From: Clostridium sp. CAG:302
GTDB taxonomy: Bacteria > Bacillota_I > Bacilli_A > RF39 > UBA660
NCBI GenBank assembly: GCA_000431795.1
Contig: FR887373.1
Coordinates: 53,818 to 117,817, forward strand
DNA length: 64,000 bases
Direction of reading: 5' to 3'
Shown: positions 2,988 to 63,285 of the stretch, one piece after another
Layout: every line of letters starts with the position of its first letter
Position numbering within the stretch: position 1 is the stretch's first letter
Position numbers and translations under genes: made by a program
Notes under the pieces: model-generated
Seen by the model: only the letters and a program-made list of their open reading frames with translations
Databases searched by the model: none
Told to the model about the DNA's origin: nothing

Positions 2988-4106
2988 ATGAAAATTACAA
3001 AAATGACATTAAAAAAATATCGTAATTATGATAATTTAGAAATTAGTTTTAATGATAATTTAAATATTATTATTGGGGACAATGCTCAAGGTAAAACTAA
3101 TTTATTAGAATCTATTTATGTTCTTGGTGTTACTAGATCATTTTTATCTGGTAATGACAGAAATCTTATTAAATTTGAAAATAAGGCTTCTTTAATAAAA
3201 GGTGAAGTTATTACTAATGATGGAAAATTTAATTTGGAAGTTTTGATTAACGAAAATGGTAAGGTAGTTAAAGTCAATAGCAAAGAAATAAAAAAACTTA
3301 GTGATTATATATCGTTACTTAATGTTATTGTATTTAATTCTGATAGTATAAGAATATTTAAAGATAGTCCAAATTCTCGAAGAAAATACTTTAATATTGA
3401 AATTAGTCAAATTAATAAGAAATATTTAAAGTTACTTAGTGATTATAATACTATATTAAGACAGAGAAATGAATTTCTTAAGGTTATTAATATTAATAAG
3501 GAAAAAGATATGATGTATTTAAGTATATTAAATGAAAAATATGCACTTTTATCCTTAGAAATATATAACTATCGAAAGAAATTTATTGATGATATTAATA
3601 TGTATTTGGGCAATTCTTTTAAATATATTGCTGGATACGATAATTTAGTAATTAAATATGCTTCTAATTTTAGTAATTTTGATAATAAAACTTTTTTAGA
3701 AAAACTAAATGATAATTTAAATAGAGATATTCAATATAAAATGACTTTAATTGGACCCAATAGAGATGATTTTTATTTTTTATTAGGTGATAAAAATTTA
3801 TCATTATATGGTAGCCAAGGACAAATTAGAAGTGCTGTTTTAGCTCTTAAACTATCAGAAGTTAAGTTATTTAATAATATTACAGGCGATACACCAATAC
3901 TTTTACTTGATGATATGTTTAGTGAATTAGATATAAATAAGAGAAATAATATTTTAAAATATTTAGATCGTAATATACAAACTATAATTACTACGACAGA
4001 TATTAAGAATATTAATGAAAAAATAAAAGAAAAAGCTAATGTTTATGAAATAAAAGAAGGAAAAATTATTTCCCGGGAAATAATTTCCAAGCAGGAAGGT
4101 GATTAA
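2988..4106 (+). CDS. recF: DNA replication and repair protein RecF
   Basis: N-terminal Walker A ([17 protein letters not shown]), SMC-like signature ([10 protein letters not shown]) and Walker B ([12 protein letters not shown]). Conserved position before gyrB. Confidence 0.93.
4068..4081. promoter_or_regulatory. Noc-binding site (NBS) palindrome inside the recF 3' end
   Basis: Exact ATTTCCCGGGAAAT. The palindrome extends to AATTATTTCCCGGGAAATAATT (4064-4085). It encodes KIISREII of RecF. Confidence 0.6.
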
Positions 4107-8675: not shown

Positions 8676-8684
8676 ATGTATATT

Positions 8685-8698
8685 ATTTCCCGGGAAAT
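8685..8698. promoter_or_regulatory. Noc-binding site (NBS) palindrome, intergenic
   Basis: Exact ATTTCCCGGGAAAT, extended to ATTATTTCCCGGGAAATAAT (8682-8701). Confidence 0.6.
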
Positions 8699-8770
8699 AA
8701 TTATTACTTGAAATGATAAAATATCAGTAGTAGCAAACAAATGTTTGCTACTACTGTTCACTTACTAAAC

Positions 8771-8799: not shown

Positions 8800-8805
8800 G
8801 TTGTT

Positions 8806-8885
8806 GATACAACATTAATGGTGGAATCAAGTCAGGGGCGGAAGCCAGCAGCTTTAACATTTAATTAATGTGTGTATCTTTTTTT
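8806..8885 (+). ncRNA. ffs: Small (4.5S-type) signal recognition particle RNA
   Basis: GUCAGG-GGC-GGAA-GCC-AGCAGC matches the universal SRP domain IV motif (E. coli GUCAGG-UCC-GGAA-GGA-AGCAGC) with a covarying stem around the GGAA tetraloop. The closing helix is GATACAACATTAAT / ATTAATGTGTGTATC, followed by T9. Confidence 0.7.
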
Positions 8886-8888
8886 TTA

Positions 8889-8904
8889 TGTTTCACGTGA
8901 AACA
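8889..8904. promoter_or_regulatory. parS site 1
   Basis: TGTTTCACGTGAAACA, followed by TAA then ATATCAACT (8908-8916). Confidence 0.75.
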
Positions 8905-9041
8905 TAAATATCAACTGTTTTATTAATTTAAAATATATCTACTATTTGATTATTATTATTTTAAATCTTATTAGTAATATAAAGTTAATATTAAAAGTTT
9001 TATTTTTTTGAAATTTATTTATTAGTGTTTTTTATGAATTA

Positions 9042-9057
9042 TGTTTCACGTGGAACA
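9042..9057. promoter_or_regulatory. parS site 2
   Basis: TGTTTCACGTGGAACA, the reverse complement of TGTTCCACGTGAAACA. Followed by TGAG then TTTTCCACA (9062-9070). Confidence 0.75.
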
Positions 9058-9197
9058 TGAGTTTTCCACAGATTATTTATGTTGTATAAAGAGTAATTAT
9101 TTAAATTTATTATTTACTGTAGTTTTATTTCTTGATTTTAATATAATGATTGATAAGTAATATATATTACTTTCTTTTTTTATATTTATTAATATAA

Positions 9198-9213
9198 TGT
9201 TTCACGTGAAACA
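9198..9213. promoter_or_regulatory. parS site 3
   Basis: TGTTTCACGTGAAACA, followed by TT then ATATCCACA (9216-9224). Confidence 0.75.
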
Positions 9214-9349
9214 TTATATCCACAACTTTTGTATATAATTTTATATTACGATACATTTTATATGTTTATTTTAGTTATAACCTCTTTTTATAAAAATAAG
9301 TTGATTATATCATTAATTTTGACTAAAATTATTATTTTGGTTTGATTTA

Positions 9350-9365
9350 TGTTTCACGTGAAACA
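9350..9365. promoter_or_regulatory. parS site 4
   Basis: TGTTTCACGTGAAACA, followed by TAAATATTAATA (a degenerate box). Confidence 0.75.
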
Positions 9366-9523
9366 TAAATATTAATATTTTTAATGTATATATAATGATA
9401 CAATTGTTGCTAAAAATGTTTTTGATATTATTATTATTGTACTATTTAAGCCTATAAATAAAATTATTACAATATTGAGCTCATGTTTTTATAAATAATT
9501 TTAATTTTTGATAAGAAATCTTA

Positions 9524-9539
9524 TGTTCCACGTGAAACA
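9524..9539. promoter_or_regulatory. parS site 5
   Basis: TGTTCCACGTGAAACA, followed by TGAG then TTTTCCACA (9544-9552). Confidence 0.75.
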
Positions 9540-9666
9540 TGAGTTTTCCACAGATTTTGTGTATAGATTTATTTTATATTTAATATGTATTTTTTTAAGA
9601 TTTAATGTATTTTATTATATGATGTAGTAATCATTATTAGTTTCAATGGCTTTTTTATTTGATTTA

Positions 9667-9682
9667 TGTTTCACGTGAAACA
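9667..9682. promoter_or_regulatory. parS site 6
   Basis: TGTTTCACGTGAAACA, followed by TAA then ATATCCACA (9686-9694). Confidence 0.75.
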
Positions 9683-9829
9683 TAAATATCCACAGTTTTT
9701 ATGATTGAAATATTTATTATATGATTTATATTTTTCATTAAAGTTGTTTTAAGTAATATTATTAACATTGTTATTTGATTTTTAAATTCGTATTTATTTA
9801 TTAACTGTACTTTTAATAAATTAAATTGA

Positions 9830-9845
9830 TGTTCCACGTGAAACA
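9830..9845. promoter_or_regulatory. parS site 7
   Basis: TGTTCCACGTGAAACA. An inverted box-like TGTTGATAT lies at 9863-9871. Confidence 0.75.
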
Positions 9846-9953
9846 TGAGTCTTTTATTCATCTGTTGATATGTAAAAAATTTATTATTATTTAATTTTTT
9901 GTTATACTTGTTGATAGAGATTGGAGTTGGCCTATATTATGGTGGAAAAGTAT

Positions 9954-10413: not shown

Positions 10414-12084
10414 GTGAGTTATTTAGCTTTGTATAGAAAATATAGACCTGTTGATTTTGATAATGTGTATGGTCAAGAAGAGGTTGTAACTGTTATTAAA
10501 AATGCAATTAACAATAATATGGTTTCTCATGCTTATTTGTTTTGTGGTCCTAGGGGTACTGGTAAAACTACTATTGCTAAGATAATTGCTAGGATGGTTA
10601 ATTGTGAAAATTTAATTGATGGTAAGCCTTGTGGTAAATGTTATAATTGTATTAACTTTCTTAATAGTAATGATATAGTGGAAATTGATGCTGCTTCGAA
10701 TAATGGTGTTGATGAAATTAGAGAACTTAGGGATAAAATTAATCTTGTGCCTAGTAATGCTAAATATAAGGTTTATATTATTGATGAAGTTCATATGCTT
10801 ACCACTCAAGCTTTTAATGCTCTTTTGAAAACTCTTGAAGAACCACCGGCACATGTTATTTTTATTTTGGCTACTACAGAACCTCATAAAATTCCGCTTA
10901 CTATTGCTTCAAGATGTCAAAAATTTAGATTTACTAAGATTAATTCAAAAAAAATTGTTGATAGATTAAGAGAGATAGCTAAACTTGAAAATATTGCTAT
11001 TGATGAAGATGCTCTTTATGAAATTGCACGAATTTCTGATGGTGGAATGAGAGACGCTATTAATTTTTTGGATCAACTTGTTGCTTATGATAATAAAGTA
11101 ATTACTCTTGATGATATTTATAAGGTGAATGGTTCAGTTTCTTATAATGATATTTATTTGTTACTTAAATCAATTGCTGATAATAATAAGGTTGAAATTA
11201 TTAGATTTTTTGATACGTTTGATAGTAGTGGAAAGGATATTAATAAGTTTGCTTCTGAATTAACTTTGTTTTTGAAAGATGTAATTTTATATAGTAATGC
11301 TAAATTGTTATCTGATATTGACATTAAAAATGAAAACATTGTACTTGTTAATAATTTATATGATTCTAAGACTATTTATGAATTAATTGAGAAACTTAAT
11401 GAAATCCAAAATTTTTTGAGGACTTCAACTCATGGTTGTATTTTATTTATGACTGCTATATTGAAGTTTTCTGATAATTATTTTGGAAATTTAATTGATG
11501 ATAATTTGGAAAAAAAAGTTGTAGATAATGCTACTAAAAATGAAAATAAAATTATTTCCCAGGAAATAATTGAAACAAATATAAATAAAGTTGACAATGA
11601 GAATGAACAAATTAAAAGTGAAGTAAATATTGAGAATATTAACATTAGAATTAATAATGCTTTGGCTACTGCCAATAAGGATAGCTTAAGAAAAATTAAG
11701 GAACAGTGGTCTTTAATAGATGATTATTTATATGATGATGCTTATTCTGTGGTTGCTGGTCTGTTAAAGGATTCTATACCTGTTGTGGCTTCTGAAAAAT
11801 ATATTATTGTTTCAAATAGTCTTGAATCTGTAGCTAACCGAATTAATGATAATTTTTCTTTAATAGATGAATTTCTTTTGAAAATATTTAAAAATAAAAT
11901 TTTTATTGTTGGTATGTCTAGTGATAATTGGAATGTAGAAAAAAACAAATATATTTCTAATATTAAAAATGGTGTTAAATATATTGAAAAGGATTTTATT
12001 AATACGGATAAAATTGAAAATAAAAAATCTTCTGTTGATGAACTTATTGATTTAATGGGAGAAAATATAATAGAATATAAATAA
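10414..12084 (+). CDS. dnaX: DNA polymerase III subunit gamma/tau
   Basis: GTG start after GAGGGAGG. Walker A GPRGTGKTT, Zn module CGKCYNC, Walker B IIDEVHMLT and sensor SRCQKF. Confidence 0.93.
   Translation: MSYLALYRKYRPVDFDNVYGQEEVVTVIKNAINNNMVSHAYLFCGPRGTGKTTIAKIIARMVNCENLIDGKPCGKCYNCINFLNSNDIVEIDAASNNGVDEIRELRDKINLVPSNAKYKVYIIDEVHMLTTQAFNALLKTLEEPPAHVIFILATTEPHKIPLTIASRCQKFRFTKINSKKIVDRLREIAKLENIAIDEDALYEIARISDGGMRDAINFLDQLVAYDNKVITLDDIYKVNGSVSYNDIYLLLKSIADNNKVEIIRFFDTFDSSGKDINKFASELTLFLKDVILYSNAKLLSDIDIKNENIVLVNNLYDSKTIYELIEKLNEIQNFLRTSTHGCILFMTAILKFSDNYFGNLIDDNLEKKVVDNATKNENKIISQEIIETNINKVDNENEQIKSEVNIENINIRINNALATANKDSLRKIKEQWSLIDDYLYDDAYSVVAGLLKDSIPVVASEKYIIVSNSLESVANRINDNFSLIDEFLLKIFKNKIFIVGMSSDNWNVEKNKYISNIKNGVKYIEKDFINTDKIENKKSSVDELIDLMGENIIEYK
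11554..11567. promoter_or_regulatory. NBS-like palindrome (1 mismatch) inside dnaX
   Basis: ATTTCCCAGGAAAT within AAAATTATTTCCCAGGAAATAATTG. It encodes KIISQEII. Confidence 0.4.
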
Positions 12085-57635: not shown

Positions 57636-57709
57636 GCAGATGTAGTTTAATGGTAGAACCTCAGCCTTCCAAGCTGACTGCGTGAGTTCGATTCTCATCA
57701 TCTGCTCCA
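57636..57709 (+). tRNA. tRNA-Gly (anticodon UCC), CCA encoded
   Basis: 74-nt cloverleaf folded by hand. Acceptor GCAGATG/CATCTGC, anticodon loop CTTCCAA, T-loop TTCGATT, 3' TCCA. Confidence 0.93.
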
Positions 57710-57748
57710 GAAGCAAAAATCGTCGCACCAAAGCGATGTTAATGATTA

Positions 57749-57775
57749 AATCAATCAGAAATGATTGATTTTTTT
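57749..57775 (+). terminator. Intrinsic terminator after tRNA-Gly
   Basis: AATCAATCA-GAAA-TGATTGATT followed by T5. Confidence 0.8.
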
Positions 57776-57803
57776 GTCGTTTAAGAAAGGTGTTGATGAT
57801 ATT

Positions 57804-58079
57804 ATGATAAAAATAATCAAACAAGAAATTAAAATAAGTCATGAACTTAAAAGCAAAGTTGAATGGGCTTGTAGGCTTAATAATACTAAACCAATTTTTA
57901 TTAATGGCAGTTTATTAAAACTAGAACCTACCAATATAGGCTATTTAGAGCCTCATAGAGCAATTATTAATAATAAGACATATCTTTTATTTAACGGACA
58001 CGAATTTGCTTACTACAGAGATTTAAATACCAAAATTAAACTATCTGATTTAAAAGATTTCATTAAAAAACTAAAATAA
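57804..58079 (+). CDS. Hypothetical protein (92 aa)
   Basis: ATG 57804 after AAAGGTG. No motif recognised. Confidence 0.45.
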   Translation: MIKIIKQEIKISHELKSKVEWACRLNNTKPIFINGSLLKLEPTNIGYLEPHRAIINNKTYLLFNGHEFAYYRDLNTKIKLSDLKDFIKKLK

Positions 58080-58150
58080 TGACAAAATCTGTGCTATAAT
58101 GGTTATAGAAAATATTAAACCTATTGGGTGAAGTAGTATTTATAGCCTAA

Positions 58151-60001
<1,851 letters not shown>

Positions 60002-60026
60002 GTAAGTAAATAATAAGCAGGATAAA

Positions 60027-60098
60027 GAGAATGATAGCACTACCCTAATTTATTCTATATAAATAAAGGATTTATAGTGCTATCATTTCTTATTTTGT
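60027..60098 (+). terminator. Possible terminator of the recombinase gene
   Basis: 14-bp stem GAATGATAGCACTA / TAGTGCTATCATTT around a 32-nt loop, followed by a T-rich tail. Confidence 0.4.
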
Positions 60099-60378
60099 AC
60101 TTGCAAAATTGAGTTAAAAATATGGAAGAATTCTACCATACTTTTGATTTTAGCCTTTTGATTAAAGTATTTGCAAGGTTATATTTTGCTTCCAACAGTT
60201 GGATATACATTAGAAAACGTTGGATGAATCTTGGATGTTTTAAGTTGGTTTCAAAATATGTTGAAATTATGGTATAATTATATATAGAAGTGACAGATAA
60301 ATAGTAATTTGAAAGTGAACTAATAGTATGTTTAATATTAGATAAAAAATTGATATATTGTTCTTGGATGGTGATAAA

Positions 60379-60921
60379 ATGAATCAAGAAAAAATAGGAA
60401 AATTTATTGCTAAATTAAGAAAGCAAAAAAAATTAACTCAAGAACAGTTAGCAGAAAAATTAGGGATAACCAAAAATGCTGTAAGCAAGTGGGAAAGAGG
60501 ATTGGGCTTAATGGATTTGTCATTGTTAAAACCATTAAGTCACATTTTAGAAGTCTCGGTTACGGAAATATTAAATGGTGAGAGATTTACTAAAGAAGAA
60601 ATCGATTCAAAAAGTGAGGAAACTTTAATTGATACACTTGATTATTCTGCAAAAGAAATAAAAAAGGTAAAAAAGAATAAGTTTATAATAATATTATTAA
60701 CAATAGTTATTACTATTTTGTCAATTGTAATATTAGACACAATTCAAGCAATAGTATTTAAAAATAGCCCAATAATAAGTTGGAGAATTGAAGATGCTAA
60801 TGATAGTGATAGTTATGTAGACAAAGGTATTTTAATTGATACTTATTATTGTGTTAGCGATGATGTAATAACGGTAATTCCAACACTTAAAAATACAAAT
60901 TATAATTGCCCATCAGAATAA
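60379..60921 (+). CDS. Membrane-anchored XRE-family HTH regulator
   Basis: N-terminal HTH (LRKQKKLTQEQLAEKLGITKNAVSKWERG), a central TM (FIIILLTIVITILSIVIL) and a ~55-aa extracytoplasmic tail. ATG at 60379 after GGATGGTGA. Confidence 0.8.
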   Translation: MNQEKIGKFIAKLRKQKKLTQEQLAEKLGITKNAVSKWERGLGLMDLSLLKPLSHILEVSVTEILNGERFTKEEIDSKSEETLIDTLDYSAKEIKKVKKNKFIIILLTIVITILSIVILDTIQAIVFKNSPIISWRIEDANDSDSYVDKGILIDTYYCVSDDVITVIPTLKNTNYNCPSE

Positions 60922-61090
60922 TAATTACAAATTACAATTTAGTGATTTGTTAAATAAATAGTAATTTGCCGATAATCATTTTTTGAACAAAAGTTGTAAC
61001 TTTTTTAAAATATGTTACTATGTAGTTGATTATTAGTAGAATTAAAGCTTATTTTTATTAAAATAAGAACAAAATAAAGGAGGTATTGTT

Positions 61091-61657
61091 ATGAAAAAGA
61101 AAAAAATTATTATTTTATCTATTTTAGTTATCTTTATAATTGCTATGATTTGTGGTGTAATTTGGTACTTTAACAATAGAAATTCAAATTATAAGCCAAA
61201 TGGCAAATTAAATTATGATACAGTACTTGTGAATGAAGAAACAAATCCATATTATCAAGTTGGATTTGCTGATTATGTGTTTATAGGAAAGGTAGATAAG
61301 GAAATTGAAAGGACATTCTCAGATTATGGCTCAGCTAGAACTATATATGAAATCGAGGTAACAGAAAATTTGAAGGGTGATCTACAAAATATAATTAAAG
61401 TAACTTATCCTGGTGGATATGATAAAGATGGAACTCTTATATTGCATAAAGGTGATTATATAACGGATGAGGAATTACCAAAGATAGGTGAAAATTATAT
61501 ATTTGTGGGTATTGGACAGCCAAACGGAACAATATTATTACAAGATTTATATTCTGATACTCCATATACAGAAGAAAATAAAGAAAAATACTTGGACTAT
61601 ATTAATAATCAAGAGAATGTAGACAGAGAAAGATTTAAAAGTATTTATGAGAATTAG
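61091..61657 (+). CDS. Membrane-anchored extracytoplasmic hypothetical protein (188 aa)
   Basis: RBS AAGGAGG. N-terminal KKKK plus a hydrophobic anchor. No motif recognised. Confidence 0.6.
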   Translation: MKKKKIIILSILVIFIIAMICGVIWYFNNRNSNYKPNGKLNYDTVLVNEETNPYYQVGFADYVFIGKVDKEIERTFSDYGSARTIYEIEVTENLKGDLQNIIKVTYPGGYDKDGTLILHKGDYITDEELPKIGENYIFVGIGQPNGTILLQDLYSDTPYTEENKEKYLDYINNQENVDRERFKSIYEN

Positions 61658-61794
61658 AAAAATGCAATAGTTGATTAACAATAACTACTTTTCTTTTTTA
61701 TGCTATTATTGTAAAAGACAAATTACAATTTATTGGTGAGATTAGTTTGAAATATAACTAGTCTTTTTATTTTGAATAAGATTTATATTTTTTG

Positions 61795-61939
61795 TCTAGG
61801 GTAGAAAATATTTCCATCTAGGGTAGAAGATATTTCTATCCACGATGGAAAATTTGTCTAACATAATATGATAATATAATATAAAGAATTAATATAACAA
61901 GAATATAAATAATAATTTAAATTAGTATAAATATTTATA
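61795..61939 (+). repeat. Iteron + promoter-like module A
   Basis: Three tandem 20-22-bp iterons: TCTAGGGTAGAAAATATTTC, CATCTAGGGTAGAAGATATTTC and TATCCACGATGGAAAATTTGTC. They are followed by a 78-bp AT-rich segment (61862-61939), ~95% identical to 62121-62196. Confidence 0.7.
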
Positions 61940-61955
61940 CAGAAAGGATTTGATT

Positions 61956-62042
61956 ATGAATGGTGTAGATTATAACGAAGTCATTATATCAGGAAATATA
62001 AATGTTATTAAGGATATAAATGAATTAATTGTCACAGTGTGA
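61956..62042 (+). CDS. 28-codon ORF downstream of module A
   Basis: ATG 7 nt after AAGGA. Encodes MNGVDYNEVIISGNINVIKDINELIVTV. Its stop codon overlaps the first iteron of module B. Too short for the ORF track. Confidence 0.3.
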   Translation: MNGVDYNEVIISGNINVIKDINELIVTV

Positions 62043-62196
62043 TGATTTTATCATGACATGACAAAAATGTCCATCAGGGTGTGATGAAAATGTCCATCTA
62101 GGGGTGATGATTTTGTCACACATAATATAATAATATAATATAAAGAATTAATATAATAAGAATATAAATATATTTAAATTAGTATAAATATTTATA
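62037..62196 (+). repeat. Iteron + promoter-like module B
   Basis: Iterons are GTGTGATGATTTTATC, CATGACATGACAAAAATGTC, CATCAGGGTGTGATGAAAATGTC and CATCTAGGGGTGATGATTTTGTC. They are followed by the 76-bp AT-rich segment duplicated from module A. Confidence 0.7.
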
Positions 62197-62204
62197 TTAA
62201 AATA

Positions 62205-62361
62205 TATAATATGTGCTATACTATTAATAGATTGATTTAATCAATTACTTGTTTCTACTTTTTCGCAAATGACCCATGTCATTGCTCCAAATTGATAGGA
62301 AACTCGGAAATTAACTTCTGAGAGTAATAAATGCTAACTAGAAATAGTTAGCACTTTTTTT
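62205..62361 (+). ncRNA. Candidate small RNA (orphan promoter-terminator unit)
   Basis: It starts after module B and ends at a strong + strand terminator. It contains no ORF longer than 12 codons and no RBS. Internal hairpins are ATTGAT-TTA-ATCAAT and GCAAATGAC-CCA-TGTCATTGC. Confidence 0.3.
62332..62361 (+). terminator. Intrinsic terminator with no upstream + strand CDS
   Basis: TGCTAACTA-GAAA-TAGTTAGCA followed by C and T7. Confidence 0.75.
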
Positions 62362-62362
62362 A

Positions 62363-62398
62363 TATAAAATAACCCCCCTATGTATTTGCATAGGGGGG
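62363..62398 (-). terminator. Intrinsic terminator of the Fic gene
   Basis: CCCCCCTATG-loop-CATAGGGGGG, followed on the - strand by TTATTTTATAT. Confidence 0.75.
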
Positions 62399-62403
62399 TG
62401 ATA

Positions 62404-63285
62404 TTAACTATTAATTTTTAATTCTTTTATTTTTTTCTTTTCGTTATCTTGTTTTTTGATTCTATTATTAATATCTAGTTCTATTATTGAATCACATACT
62501 TTATATCTATAGAATCCTTTAATGTAATCATAATTTCCTTCATTATTTGCTTTATTCATTGCTAAATGATACTCTGTTCTTTCATTTGCTTTGATGTATA
62601 TTGGTGGTAATCCAACGTCTTCAAATAATTTGTTAATAAATCCTCTTATTGTTCGACCATTACCATCATCAAAAGGATGTACTTTGATTAACTTACAACC
62701 AATAACTACACAATTATCTAGATATTCAAGTAATTTATCAGTTGAGAAGTTAGTATTTAATTCTTTTGCATCTTCTAGTAATTTTTGTATTTCTATATCT
62801 ATTTTTTTTAATTCAGGTCTTATCATAGACCATTCTGATAGTTCTGTACCAGTTCCAGGAAGATATACATCGAATCTTCTAAAATCTCCGGCATACTCTG
62901 GGTATTCTGTAAATGAAAATAATTTTGCATTTAAATCTTTAAGAGTATATACATCAAATAAATAATTAACATCATCGGAATGTATATATTCATACATAGC
63001 TTTAAGTCCTTTTATTTCTATACTATTGTGTGTTCCCTCAAGTTCACTTTCGTTATTAATGTATTTTGTAATAAATGCTTTTTTCATTTTGTCAAATTCA
63101 ATCTTACCTGGTGCTAAACTATAATACATTTTAATTAACTTTGTTGGTGTTTCTGCTTTTTCTTCATAAAGTTTATTAACTTTTTTTCTGTATTTATATC
63201 CTAAAAATGATTCTTGTATTATAAAGTTTATATCGATTCCTGCACTATTTAAATCTTTAATTAATTTTGCTTTTTCTTCACTCAT
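62404..63285 (-). CDS. Fic/DOC-family protein (putative AMPylase)
   Basis: Canonical Fic motif HPFDDGNGRTIRGF (HxFx[D/E]GNGRxxR) at residues ~203-216. Confidence 0.88.
   Translation of the reverse strand: MSEEKAKLIKDLNSAGIDINFIIQESFLGYKYRKKVNKLYEEKAETPTKLIKMYYSLAPGKIEFDKMKKAFITKYINNESELEGTHNSIEIKGLKAMYEYIHSDDVNYLFDVYTLKDLNAKLFSFTEYPEYAGDFRRFDVYLPGTGTELSEWSMIRPELKKIDIEIQKLLEDAKELNTNFSTDKLLEYLDNCVVIGCKLIKVHPFDDGNGRTIRGFINKLFEDVGLPPIYIKANERTEYHLAMNKANNEGNYDYIKGFYRYKVCDSIIELDINNRIKKQDNEKKKIKELKINS

Follow-up and report, generated by a model that had tools for sequence, protein, structure and literature searches.

An array of parS sites with adjacent DnaA-box-like motifs between gyrA and tadA as a putative chromosomal centromere of uncultured gut Bacilli

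What purpose could be served by seven copies of a chromosomal partition site placed side by side in a single intergenic tract? This question is raised by a 64,000-nucleotide stretch of the genome of Clostridium sp. CAG:302 (contig FR887373.1, positions 53,818 to 117,817; hereafter the window), in which the spacer between gyrA and tadA contains seven parS sites, the targets of the partition protein ParB (Spo0J), several of them adjoined by a 9-mer resembling the DnaA box. The tract is probably a dedicated ParB-loading chromosomal centromere of uncultured low-GC gut Bacilli which also docks DnaA. Protein binding and function are predicted here from the sequence anatomy of the tract, its conservation in relatives, the enrichment of the DnaA-box-like motifs and the match between their variants and those upstream of dnaA.

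The seven 16-mers (starts at 8889, 9042, 9198, 9350, 9524, 9667 and 9830) are identical to TGTTNCACGTGAAACA (0 mismatches on one strand), and all seven form the 18-bp palindrome ATGTT..AACAT. They constitute a non-coding array spanning 8888-9846, i.e., seven parS in 960 bp. Chance expectation at ≤2 mismatches is 0.02 sites in the 64-kb window; seven were found and no eighth, in agreement with the coordinates, the 18-bp extension and the spacings given in the original prediction. The distances from parS to parS (153, 156, 152, 174, 143 and 163 bp) have a coefficient of variation of 0.062, a regularity reached in 2.5e-6 of random-placement trials. The GC content of the spacers (10–19 %, i.e., 81–90 % AT) bears out the extreme AT-richness ascribed to the tract. 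The gyrA-tadA tract as a whole is not gene-free, as had been assumed, because a small signal recognition particle (SRP) RNA gene is located at 8801-8886. The sites of the array are the following:

8888..8905, no strand: parS1, ATGTTTCACGTGAAACAT, dyad symmetry to 24 bp
9041..9058, no strand: parS2, ATGTTTCACGTGGAACAT
9197..9214, no strand: parS3, perfect palindrome to 28 bp
9349..9366, no strand: parS4, perfect palindrome to 26 bp; without adjacent box, unlike its orthologues in the related loci L131 and L133 (L numbers denote retrieved loci)
9523..9540, no strand: parS5, ATGTTCCACGTGAAACAT
9666..9683, no strand: parS6, perfect palindrome to 26 bp
9829..9846, no strand: parS7, ATGTTCCACGTGAAACAT

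Sites 1, 3, 4 and 6 are thus extended palindromes (24–28 bp). Dyad symmetry reaching ≥6 nt past the 16-mer was found for 14 % of parS sites versus 0.9 % in a cross-locus control, with variable outer arms (62 distinct sequences among 71 extended sites). Such extended dyads, seen also in L020, L024, L097, L073 and L080, could provide hairpin or cruciform potential, or could result from palindrome growth through template switching.

Two alternating types of repeat unit had been described, together with amplification of a two-site unit. The alternation is real for short flanks only; beyond these, residual spacer homology is confined to the three pairs 1~6, 2~5 and 3~5 (z 4.6–5.7). Recent tandem amplification in the window was rejected, since this homology is weak and Tandem Repeats Finder reported no tandem repeat in the array, the units of which are old and diverged. 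Amplification of a two-site unit is therefore only weakly visible in the window and was overstated for it, but is clear in the relatives L131 and L138; signs of fresh amplification are present in relatives. Helical phasing was considered as well, five of the six spacings corresponding to n+0.5 turns, and was dropped because the orthologous arrays of L131 and L132 do not keep this post-hoc pattern.

The array is present letter for letter in two independent metagenome assemblies (L001, L003). Assemblies of the same species were also found to break within it, L002 ending at parS1 and L005 after parS2, and such arrays are probably under-represented in metagenome-assembled genomes (MAGs). On a JGI contig, a 65-aa open reading frame (ORF) starting inside a parS site was called (window 9664-9861, minus strand; cf. 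L022 930-1151). It is almost certainly spurious; gene callers start ORFs inside parS because ATGTTCCACGTGGAACAT reads as MFHVEH.

Is this architecture peculiar to the window? A scan for three parS spaced 143–173 bp apart, applied to one genome per species (GTDB), yielded at least 120 stretches. Three or more closely spaced parS occur in >120 representative genomes of many phyla (Moranbacteria and other groups of the Candidate Phyla Radiation, Bdellovibrionales, Acidobacteriota, Planctomycetota, Actinomycetota, Clostridia and others), where the array often adjoins parB or dnaA. Dense parS arrays therefore represent a recurrent architecture, and their rarity had been overstated. Very tight tandem arrays (35–50-bp period, 9–19 copies) were also noticed in unrelated taxa (L019, L084, L115, L118, L096, L047, L069, L018), their hosts including Planctomycetota, Hyphomicrobiales (three separate arrays on one chromosome) and a 'Deltaproteobacteria' MAG.

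Among the matches listed, 47 loci (46 other genomes) share the synteny gyrA-array-tadA-dnaX-ybaB-recR, with GyrA proteins 52–82 % identical to that of the window. The 46 genomes are gut MAGs (animal and human) of low-GC "Bacilli", including CAG:460, Ca. Onthocola, Ca. Scybalousia and "Tenericutes"/"Erysipelotrichaceae" bins. Their arrays comprise 4–19 parS at spacings of 36–335 bp, ranging from tandem units of 36, 40, 55, 75 and 82–84 bp to units of about 150–170 bp; the tandem copies of L071 are 92 % identical. Copy number and spacing of the parS units evidently change quickly, as judged from this comparison. Having been picked through their parS pattern, the scanned genomes are a biased sample, which counts against the proposed centromere; relatives were therefore also sampled via TadA and ComK homologues, i.e., blind to parS. 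A parS array was present in the gyrA-tadA spacer of all seven lineages obtained in this way (L131/L132, 8 sites; L133, 6; L134, 5; L136, 7; L138, 8; L139, 6; L140, 4).

When the window is aligned with L131 and L133 (alignment A1), every parS site has its own orthologous counterpart, whereas no alignment is possible across the spacers. Conservation is seen for a predicted Noc-binding site (NBS), the core of the gyrA terminator, the SRP RNA gene and the promoter of that gene, every parS together with the 9-mer beside it, TGTTGAT(A/G)T behind the final parS, and the promoter block of tadA. The parS sites thus appear to be conserved under purifying selection. The array is not absent from relatives: it holds the same intergenic position in at least 46 other genomes of the clade and in all lineages sampled blind to parS, which argues for the dedicated, centromere-like ParB platform that had been suspected.

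This fixed position between core genes also bears on the idea that the tract is what remains of a partition site from an integrated plasmid or phage, or belongs to a selfish palindromic repeat family without host function. Such an origin might be considered, since iterated ParB sites are typical of plasmid centromeres and a mobile element (serine recombinase, Fic and HTH genes) is present at about 58–63 kb of the window. However, neither feature expected of a plasmid- or phage-type partition site, i.e., a parAB operon or sequence similarity, was found: no par or mobility genes adjoin the array, and blastn against 72,556 plasmid and 50,697 phage records gave no match. Moreover, the surveyed DNA around dnaA contains no other copy of the palindrome; this DNA extends from ~10 kb upstream of dnaN (L001) to the end of the window and is continued by L127-L130 for ~10 kb past the last gene of the window. 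At ≤3 mismatches, no further parS-like site was detected in L001 or the window, and L127-L130 contained none. A relic or selfish repeat is accordingly hardly credible.

The second component of the proposed centromere is formed by the 9-mers next to parS. TTTTCCACA (9062, 9544) and ATATCCACA (9216, 9686) deviate from TTATCCACA by one mismatch and are all on the plus strand. These four boxes follow the 18-mer by 1–3 nt (the 16-mer by 2–4 nt), on the tadA side and in one orientation. Weaker box-like elements of the window are located at 8908, 9863 and 9910. The originally described 9-mers were thereby recovered, ATATCAACT being weak (3 mismatches) and TGTTGATAT lying at 9863 as described:

8908..8916, plus strand: degenerate box ATATCAACT, 3 mismatches; the orthologous position in L131 and L133 reads TTTTCCACA
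9062..9070, plus strand: DnaA-box-like TTTTCCACA, 3 nt after parS2; the 10-mer TTTTCCACAG recurs upstream of dnaA
9216..9224, plus strand: DnaA-box-like ATATCCACA, 1 nt after the 18-mer of parS3
9544..9552, plus strand: DnaA-box-like TTTTCCACA, 3 nt after parS5
9686..9694, plus strand: DnaA-box-like ATATCCACA, 2 nt after parS6; the 10-mer ATATCCACAG recurs upstream of dnaA
9863..9871, minus strand: inverted box-like TGTTGATAT, reverse complement ATATCAACA; kept in L131 and L133

Across the 48 syntenic loci among the matches listed, a box with at most one mismatch lies within 20 nt of 44 of the 382 parS sites; 17 of these loci are involved, and eight loci have at least three such sites. Of 400 permutations of the same nine letters, tested on the same loci (mean 1.5 loci, maximum 8), none reached the observed enrichment. 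Box density in the arrays amounts to 1.66 per kb, as compared to 0.19 per kb (maximum 0.77) for the permuted motifs. In the nearest lineages the geometry parS-N2-3-box is kept with TTTTCCACA, ATATCCACA or TTATCAACA, all of them one-mismatch variants of the DnaA box.

The variants found beside parS were compared with those upstream of dnaA, where the box cluster of L001, a metagenome contig identical to that of the window with 10 kb extra upstream, reads ATATCAACA-ATATCCACAG-gg-CTGTGGAAAA ... GTGGATAA. In the genome of the window, the boxes upstream of dnaA are mostly of the CCACA type and include the 10-mers ATATCCACAG and TTTTCCACAG found beside parS. In L138, all five boxes upstream of dnaA are of the CAACA type, and the two parS-adjacent boxes read TTATCAACAG. 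A DnaA C-terminal DNA-binding domain was found (Pfam Bac_DnaA_C). Enrichment over permuted motifs, site-by-site conservation and the match of variants in the window and L138 support the parS-adjacent 9-mers as real, selected DnaA-box-like elements and putative DnaA sites, in line with the proposed fusion of the ParB platform to DnaA-type sites.

Apart from the sampling bias mentioned above, several observations weigh against a centromere bound by both ParB and DnaA. A one-mismatch box accompanies only four of the seven parS sites of the window, and the perfect TTATCCACA none of them. No adjacent box is present in 31 of the 48 listed related arrays, nor in L140. Box orientation varies, the 5' end facing parS in the lineage of the window and the 3' end in L024, L097, L020, L041 and L119; no single contact geometry between ParB and DnaA can therefore be essential. 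As to the match with the boxes upstream of dnaA, only two lineages of uniform type (window, L138) are informative, L139 being mixed and L140 lacking an adjacent box. Partition genes were searched for in the window and all retrieved loci by motif regular expressions, a hidden Markov model built from 24 ParB proteins of other loci and a Walker-box regular expression. ParB-, Noc- or ParA-type genes were detected neither from ~10 kb upstream of dnaN to the end of the window, nor in L127-L130, nor in any syntenic locus, and the cognate ParB and Noc proteins are therefore assumed. Finally, TTTTCCAC is identical in 7 of 8 positions to the parS half-site TGTTCCAC and so could be an extra ParB half-site.

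This likeness leads to an alternative in which the tract is a ParB centromere whose 9-mers are not DnaA sites at all but could be additional half-sites for ParB, sites for some unknown factor or flanking DNA carried along in unit duplication. In its favour, TTTTCCAC and the right half of parS2 also make up an inverted repeat, the flanks of the array fall into repeated unit types, two thirds of the listed related arrays have no boxes, and box geometry is lineage-variable. However, ATATCCACA and TTATCAACA, which take the same position in relatives, are unlike the parS half-site, and orthologous boxes persist where the surrounding spacers have diverged beyond alignment. Nor would the alternative account for an enrichment matched by 0/400 motifs of the same composition, or for a box variant equal to that upstream of dnaA in both the window and L138. 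It is thus considered rather unlikely, and the centromere with additional DnaA docking is retained as the probable interpretation.

Could the boxes instead mark the tract as part of the replication origin, i.e., a second oriC half, as had been suggested, or an unwinding region, with parS being incidental? Four to seven DnaA-box-like motifs in DNA of 81–90 % AT would fit an origin, as would the lack of a clear GC-skew flip upstream of dnaA within 8.5 kb. However, the boxes of the tract are single, unclustered and 150–330 bp apart, and the dnaA stop codon lies 8.1 kb upstream of parS1. On either side of the tract, GC skew has strongly positive values (+0.29 to +0.34) without a flip, and the genes on both sides are on the plus strand. 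The tract thus displays neither a dense box cluster adjoining dnaA nor a skew or strand switch, by which oriC would be recognized. A separate, conserved cluster of 3–5 boxes within ~90 bp is present upstream of dnaA in L001, L138, L139 and L140, while the L140 array contains no boxes and about two thirds of the listed arrays no adjacent ones. Rapid turnover of copy number and spacing of the units is likewise unlike an origin. An origin function of the tract is therefore very unlikely. The array is origin-proximal, the position of oriC itself being deduced from the conserved DnaA-box cluster upstream of dnaA.

Besides ParB and DnaA, a third DNA-binding protein may be connected to the locus. For Noc of B. 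subtilis, the 16-bp NBS consensus is TATTTCCCGGGAAATA. A perfect copy had been missed at the gyrA side of the tract:

8684..8699, no strand: NBS TATTTCCCGGGAAATA, 16/16 match to the B. subtilis consensus, just 3' of the gyrA stop codon

An NBS is found at the same position after gyrA in L131, L133, L136, L138 and L140. Perfect copies of the palindrome ATTTCCCGGGAAAT follow gyrA and lie at the recF 3' end (4068-4081), and a copy with one mismatch lies in dnaX (11554-11567); these three NBS positions are kept in the lineage of the window. The spacers of the window's array contain no NBS relics at ≤5 mismatches. In many relatives, NBS alternates one-to-one with parS (parS/NBS counts: L053, 11/11; L071, 9/9; L011, 8/7; L095, 6/7; L046, 6/6; also L007, L020 and L063), and the unit of L053 holds parS, NBS and TTGTTGATAT together. 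The arrays contain 1.22 NBS per kb, as against 0.06 per kb elsewhere in the same loci. Each half-site of NBS departs from that of parS at 2 bases (PMC7383237). The 72 loci from other taxa among the matches listed are free of NBS, in keeping with the report that Noc is confined to Firmicutes (PMC7383237).

From these motif patterns one may tentatively envisage the gyrA-tadA spacer as a modular landing pad in whose repeated units ParB, DnaA and a Noc-like paralogue of ParB would be loaded next to one another. These units would be parS-N2-4-DnaA box plus one NBS at the edge in the window, and parS with NBS (75–84 bp) or parS-NBS-box (L053) in relatives. If so, DnaA bound 2–4 bp from parS would be a direct partner of the ParB-CTP clamp or a one-sided roadblock, and Noc, loaded next to ParB, would anchor the centromere to the membrane. 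Replication initiation, segregation and attachment to the membrane would then be wired together in a single cis element, in a way not described before.

For the probable centromere with DnaA docking, the following mechanism is proposed. Each parS would be a loading point for ParB-CTP dimers, which would then close as clamps and slide into the neighbouring DNA, and seven adjacent loaders would raise the loading rate. Most of the cellular ParB could thereby be concentrated in one origin-proximal partition complex serving as a handle for ParA and/or as a loading site for SMC. Four to five of the seven units would dock DnaA, directly beside ParB, since the box invariably lies towards tadA and has the same orientation. 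Most likely, the boxes would act as an origin-proximal DnaA reservoir or sensor coupling initiation status to the partition complex; at 8 kb from dnaA, they would be duplicated immediately after initiation and could titrate or sense DnaA. A further possible role of the parS-adjacent boxes is the licensing of segregation that has been proposed for Caulobacter (PMC6399470).

How does such a locus compare with known partition systems? The Spo0J/ParB system of B. subtilis is alike in its consensus (TGTTNCACGTGAAACA), in its origin-proximal position, in belonging to the class Bacilli and in a similar gene order (dnaA-dnaN-recF-gyrB-gyrA ... tadA/SRP RNA-dnaX-recR). Its parS sites are mostly intragenic. 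The four strongest are 5, 13 and 39 kb apart (PMC5815017). In the window, by contrast, seven parS share 1 kb of non-coding DNA, with no others in the surveyed DNA around dnaA.

Plasmid centromere arrays such as sopC of plasmid F, with its 12 x 43-bp repeats, also consist of iterated sites for a ParB-family protein in a short non-coding tract, and some relatives of the window possess tight tandem units of 36–84 bp with 92 % identity. Unlike the plasmid arrays, the array of the window is chromosomal and syntenic between core genes, has the chromosomal parS consensus and old diverged units, and lacks an adjacent parAB operon. In Streptomyces and Listeria, parS sites are spread over tens to hundreds of kb, many of them being intragenic, and they are not known to form an evenly spaced intergenic array. 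Accumulation of many copies near the origin is common to these genera and the window, 20–23 chromosomal parS having been reported there (PMC7333895).

Caulobacter crescentus carries five strong parS within 5 kb, about 8 kb from ori, and this clustering was argued to raise the local density of DNA-bound ParB (PMC5815017), an argument that is extended here to the array of the window. According to Mera 2014, as cited in PMC6399470, DnaA binds DnaA boxes in the parS region of this bacterium. It thus resembles the window in having a parS cluster ~8 kb from ori, DnaA boxes in the centromere region and a proposed role of DnaA in coupling initiation and segregation. It differs in phylum and in the location of its sites within or near essential genes over 5 kb, and a repeated one-to-one module of parS and box at a fixed distance of 2–4 nt is not described for it in the literature searched. 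In B. subtilis, clusters of DnaA boxes outside oriC keep DnaA in check jointly with Spo0J/Soj (Okumura 2012, PMC3245932). Like the boxes of the window, these clusters are intergenic and origin-proximal; they restrain initiation and interact genetically with Spo0J/Soj. Unlike them, they are tight and not described as merged with parS, whereas the boxes of the window are paired with parS and about 150 bp apart. One locus of the window would thus merge the roles that B. subtilis assigns separately to DnaA-box clusters and Spo0J/Soj.

The surroundings of the array correspond to a Bacillus-like origin region with about 26 % GC. The gene order is dnaA (3' part)-dnaN-comK-like-recF-gyrB-gyrA-NBS-SRP RNA-parS array-tadA-dnaX-ybaB-recR-holB, followed by metS, mfd, clpC and others. 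Three further elements flank the array:

8725..8756, plus strand: hairpin with 15-bp arms, probably the gyrA terminator; its core GCAAACAAATGTTTGC is kept in relatives
8801..8886, plus strand: small SRP RNA gene (Rfam RF00169, 53.3 bits versus a gathering score of 40); its T-run stops 2 nt before parS1
9895..9920, plus strand: putative tadA promoter block TTTTTTGTTATACTTGTTGATAGAG, invariant in alignment A1, with the extended -10 element TGTTATACT and the inverted box-like TGTTGATAG (9910) near the predicted start

The SRP RNA gene is nearly invariant in alignment A1, and the arrangement gyrA-SRP RNA-array is kept in relatives; in B. subtilis the order is tadA-scr-dnaX. Rfam thresholds are reached in the window by three RNAs alone, i.e., the SRP RNA, a T-box leader and a tRNA, and a known RNA family within the array was rejected on these grounds. 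The block at 9895-9920 looks like a promoter by its sequence, and the tadA-dnaX-ybaB-recR operon may be regulated by DnaA.

A gene of the ComK family is located between dnaN and recF (2383-2844; Pfam E 1.5e-23), a position kept across the clade. Upstream of dnaA, L001 contains polA, fpg, a DUF87 gene and others, and the usual rpmH-rnpA-...-noc-soj-spo0J block is not there. In L004 (10105-13394; identical DnaN), adenine glycosylase, tsf and rpsB genes take the place of recF-gyrB after comK, reflecting either strain rearrangement or chimeric assembly. On related contigs, rpsF-ssb-rpsR-rplI-dnaB are situated just past the end of the window. At 57636-63285, a serine recombinase gene, small HTH genes and a Fic-domain gene lie behind a tRNA gene; the strain-dependent content of this segment (L127-L130) suggests an integrative element.

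Clustering of parS and the presence of DnaA at a centromere already have precedents. New here are the clade-wide, fast-evolving intergenic array at a fixed locus, the repeated one-to-one modules of parS and DnaA box, and the interleaving of NBS in relatives; neither such arrays in this clade nor the box modules or NBS interleaving were described in the literature searched. On the practical side, the arrays break metagenome assemblies and seed spurious ORFs beginning with MFHV(K/E)H. Variation in parS copy number and the clustering of sites are regarded as open questions in reviews (PMC7333895), and the clade offers a natural series on both, with 4–19 parS at 36–335-bp spacing, with or without DnaA boxes and Noc sites, at one fixed locus. 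If ParB and DnaA indeed bind 2–4 bp apart, the array would constitute a compact cis-acting link between initiation and segregation in the class Bacilli.

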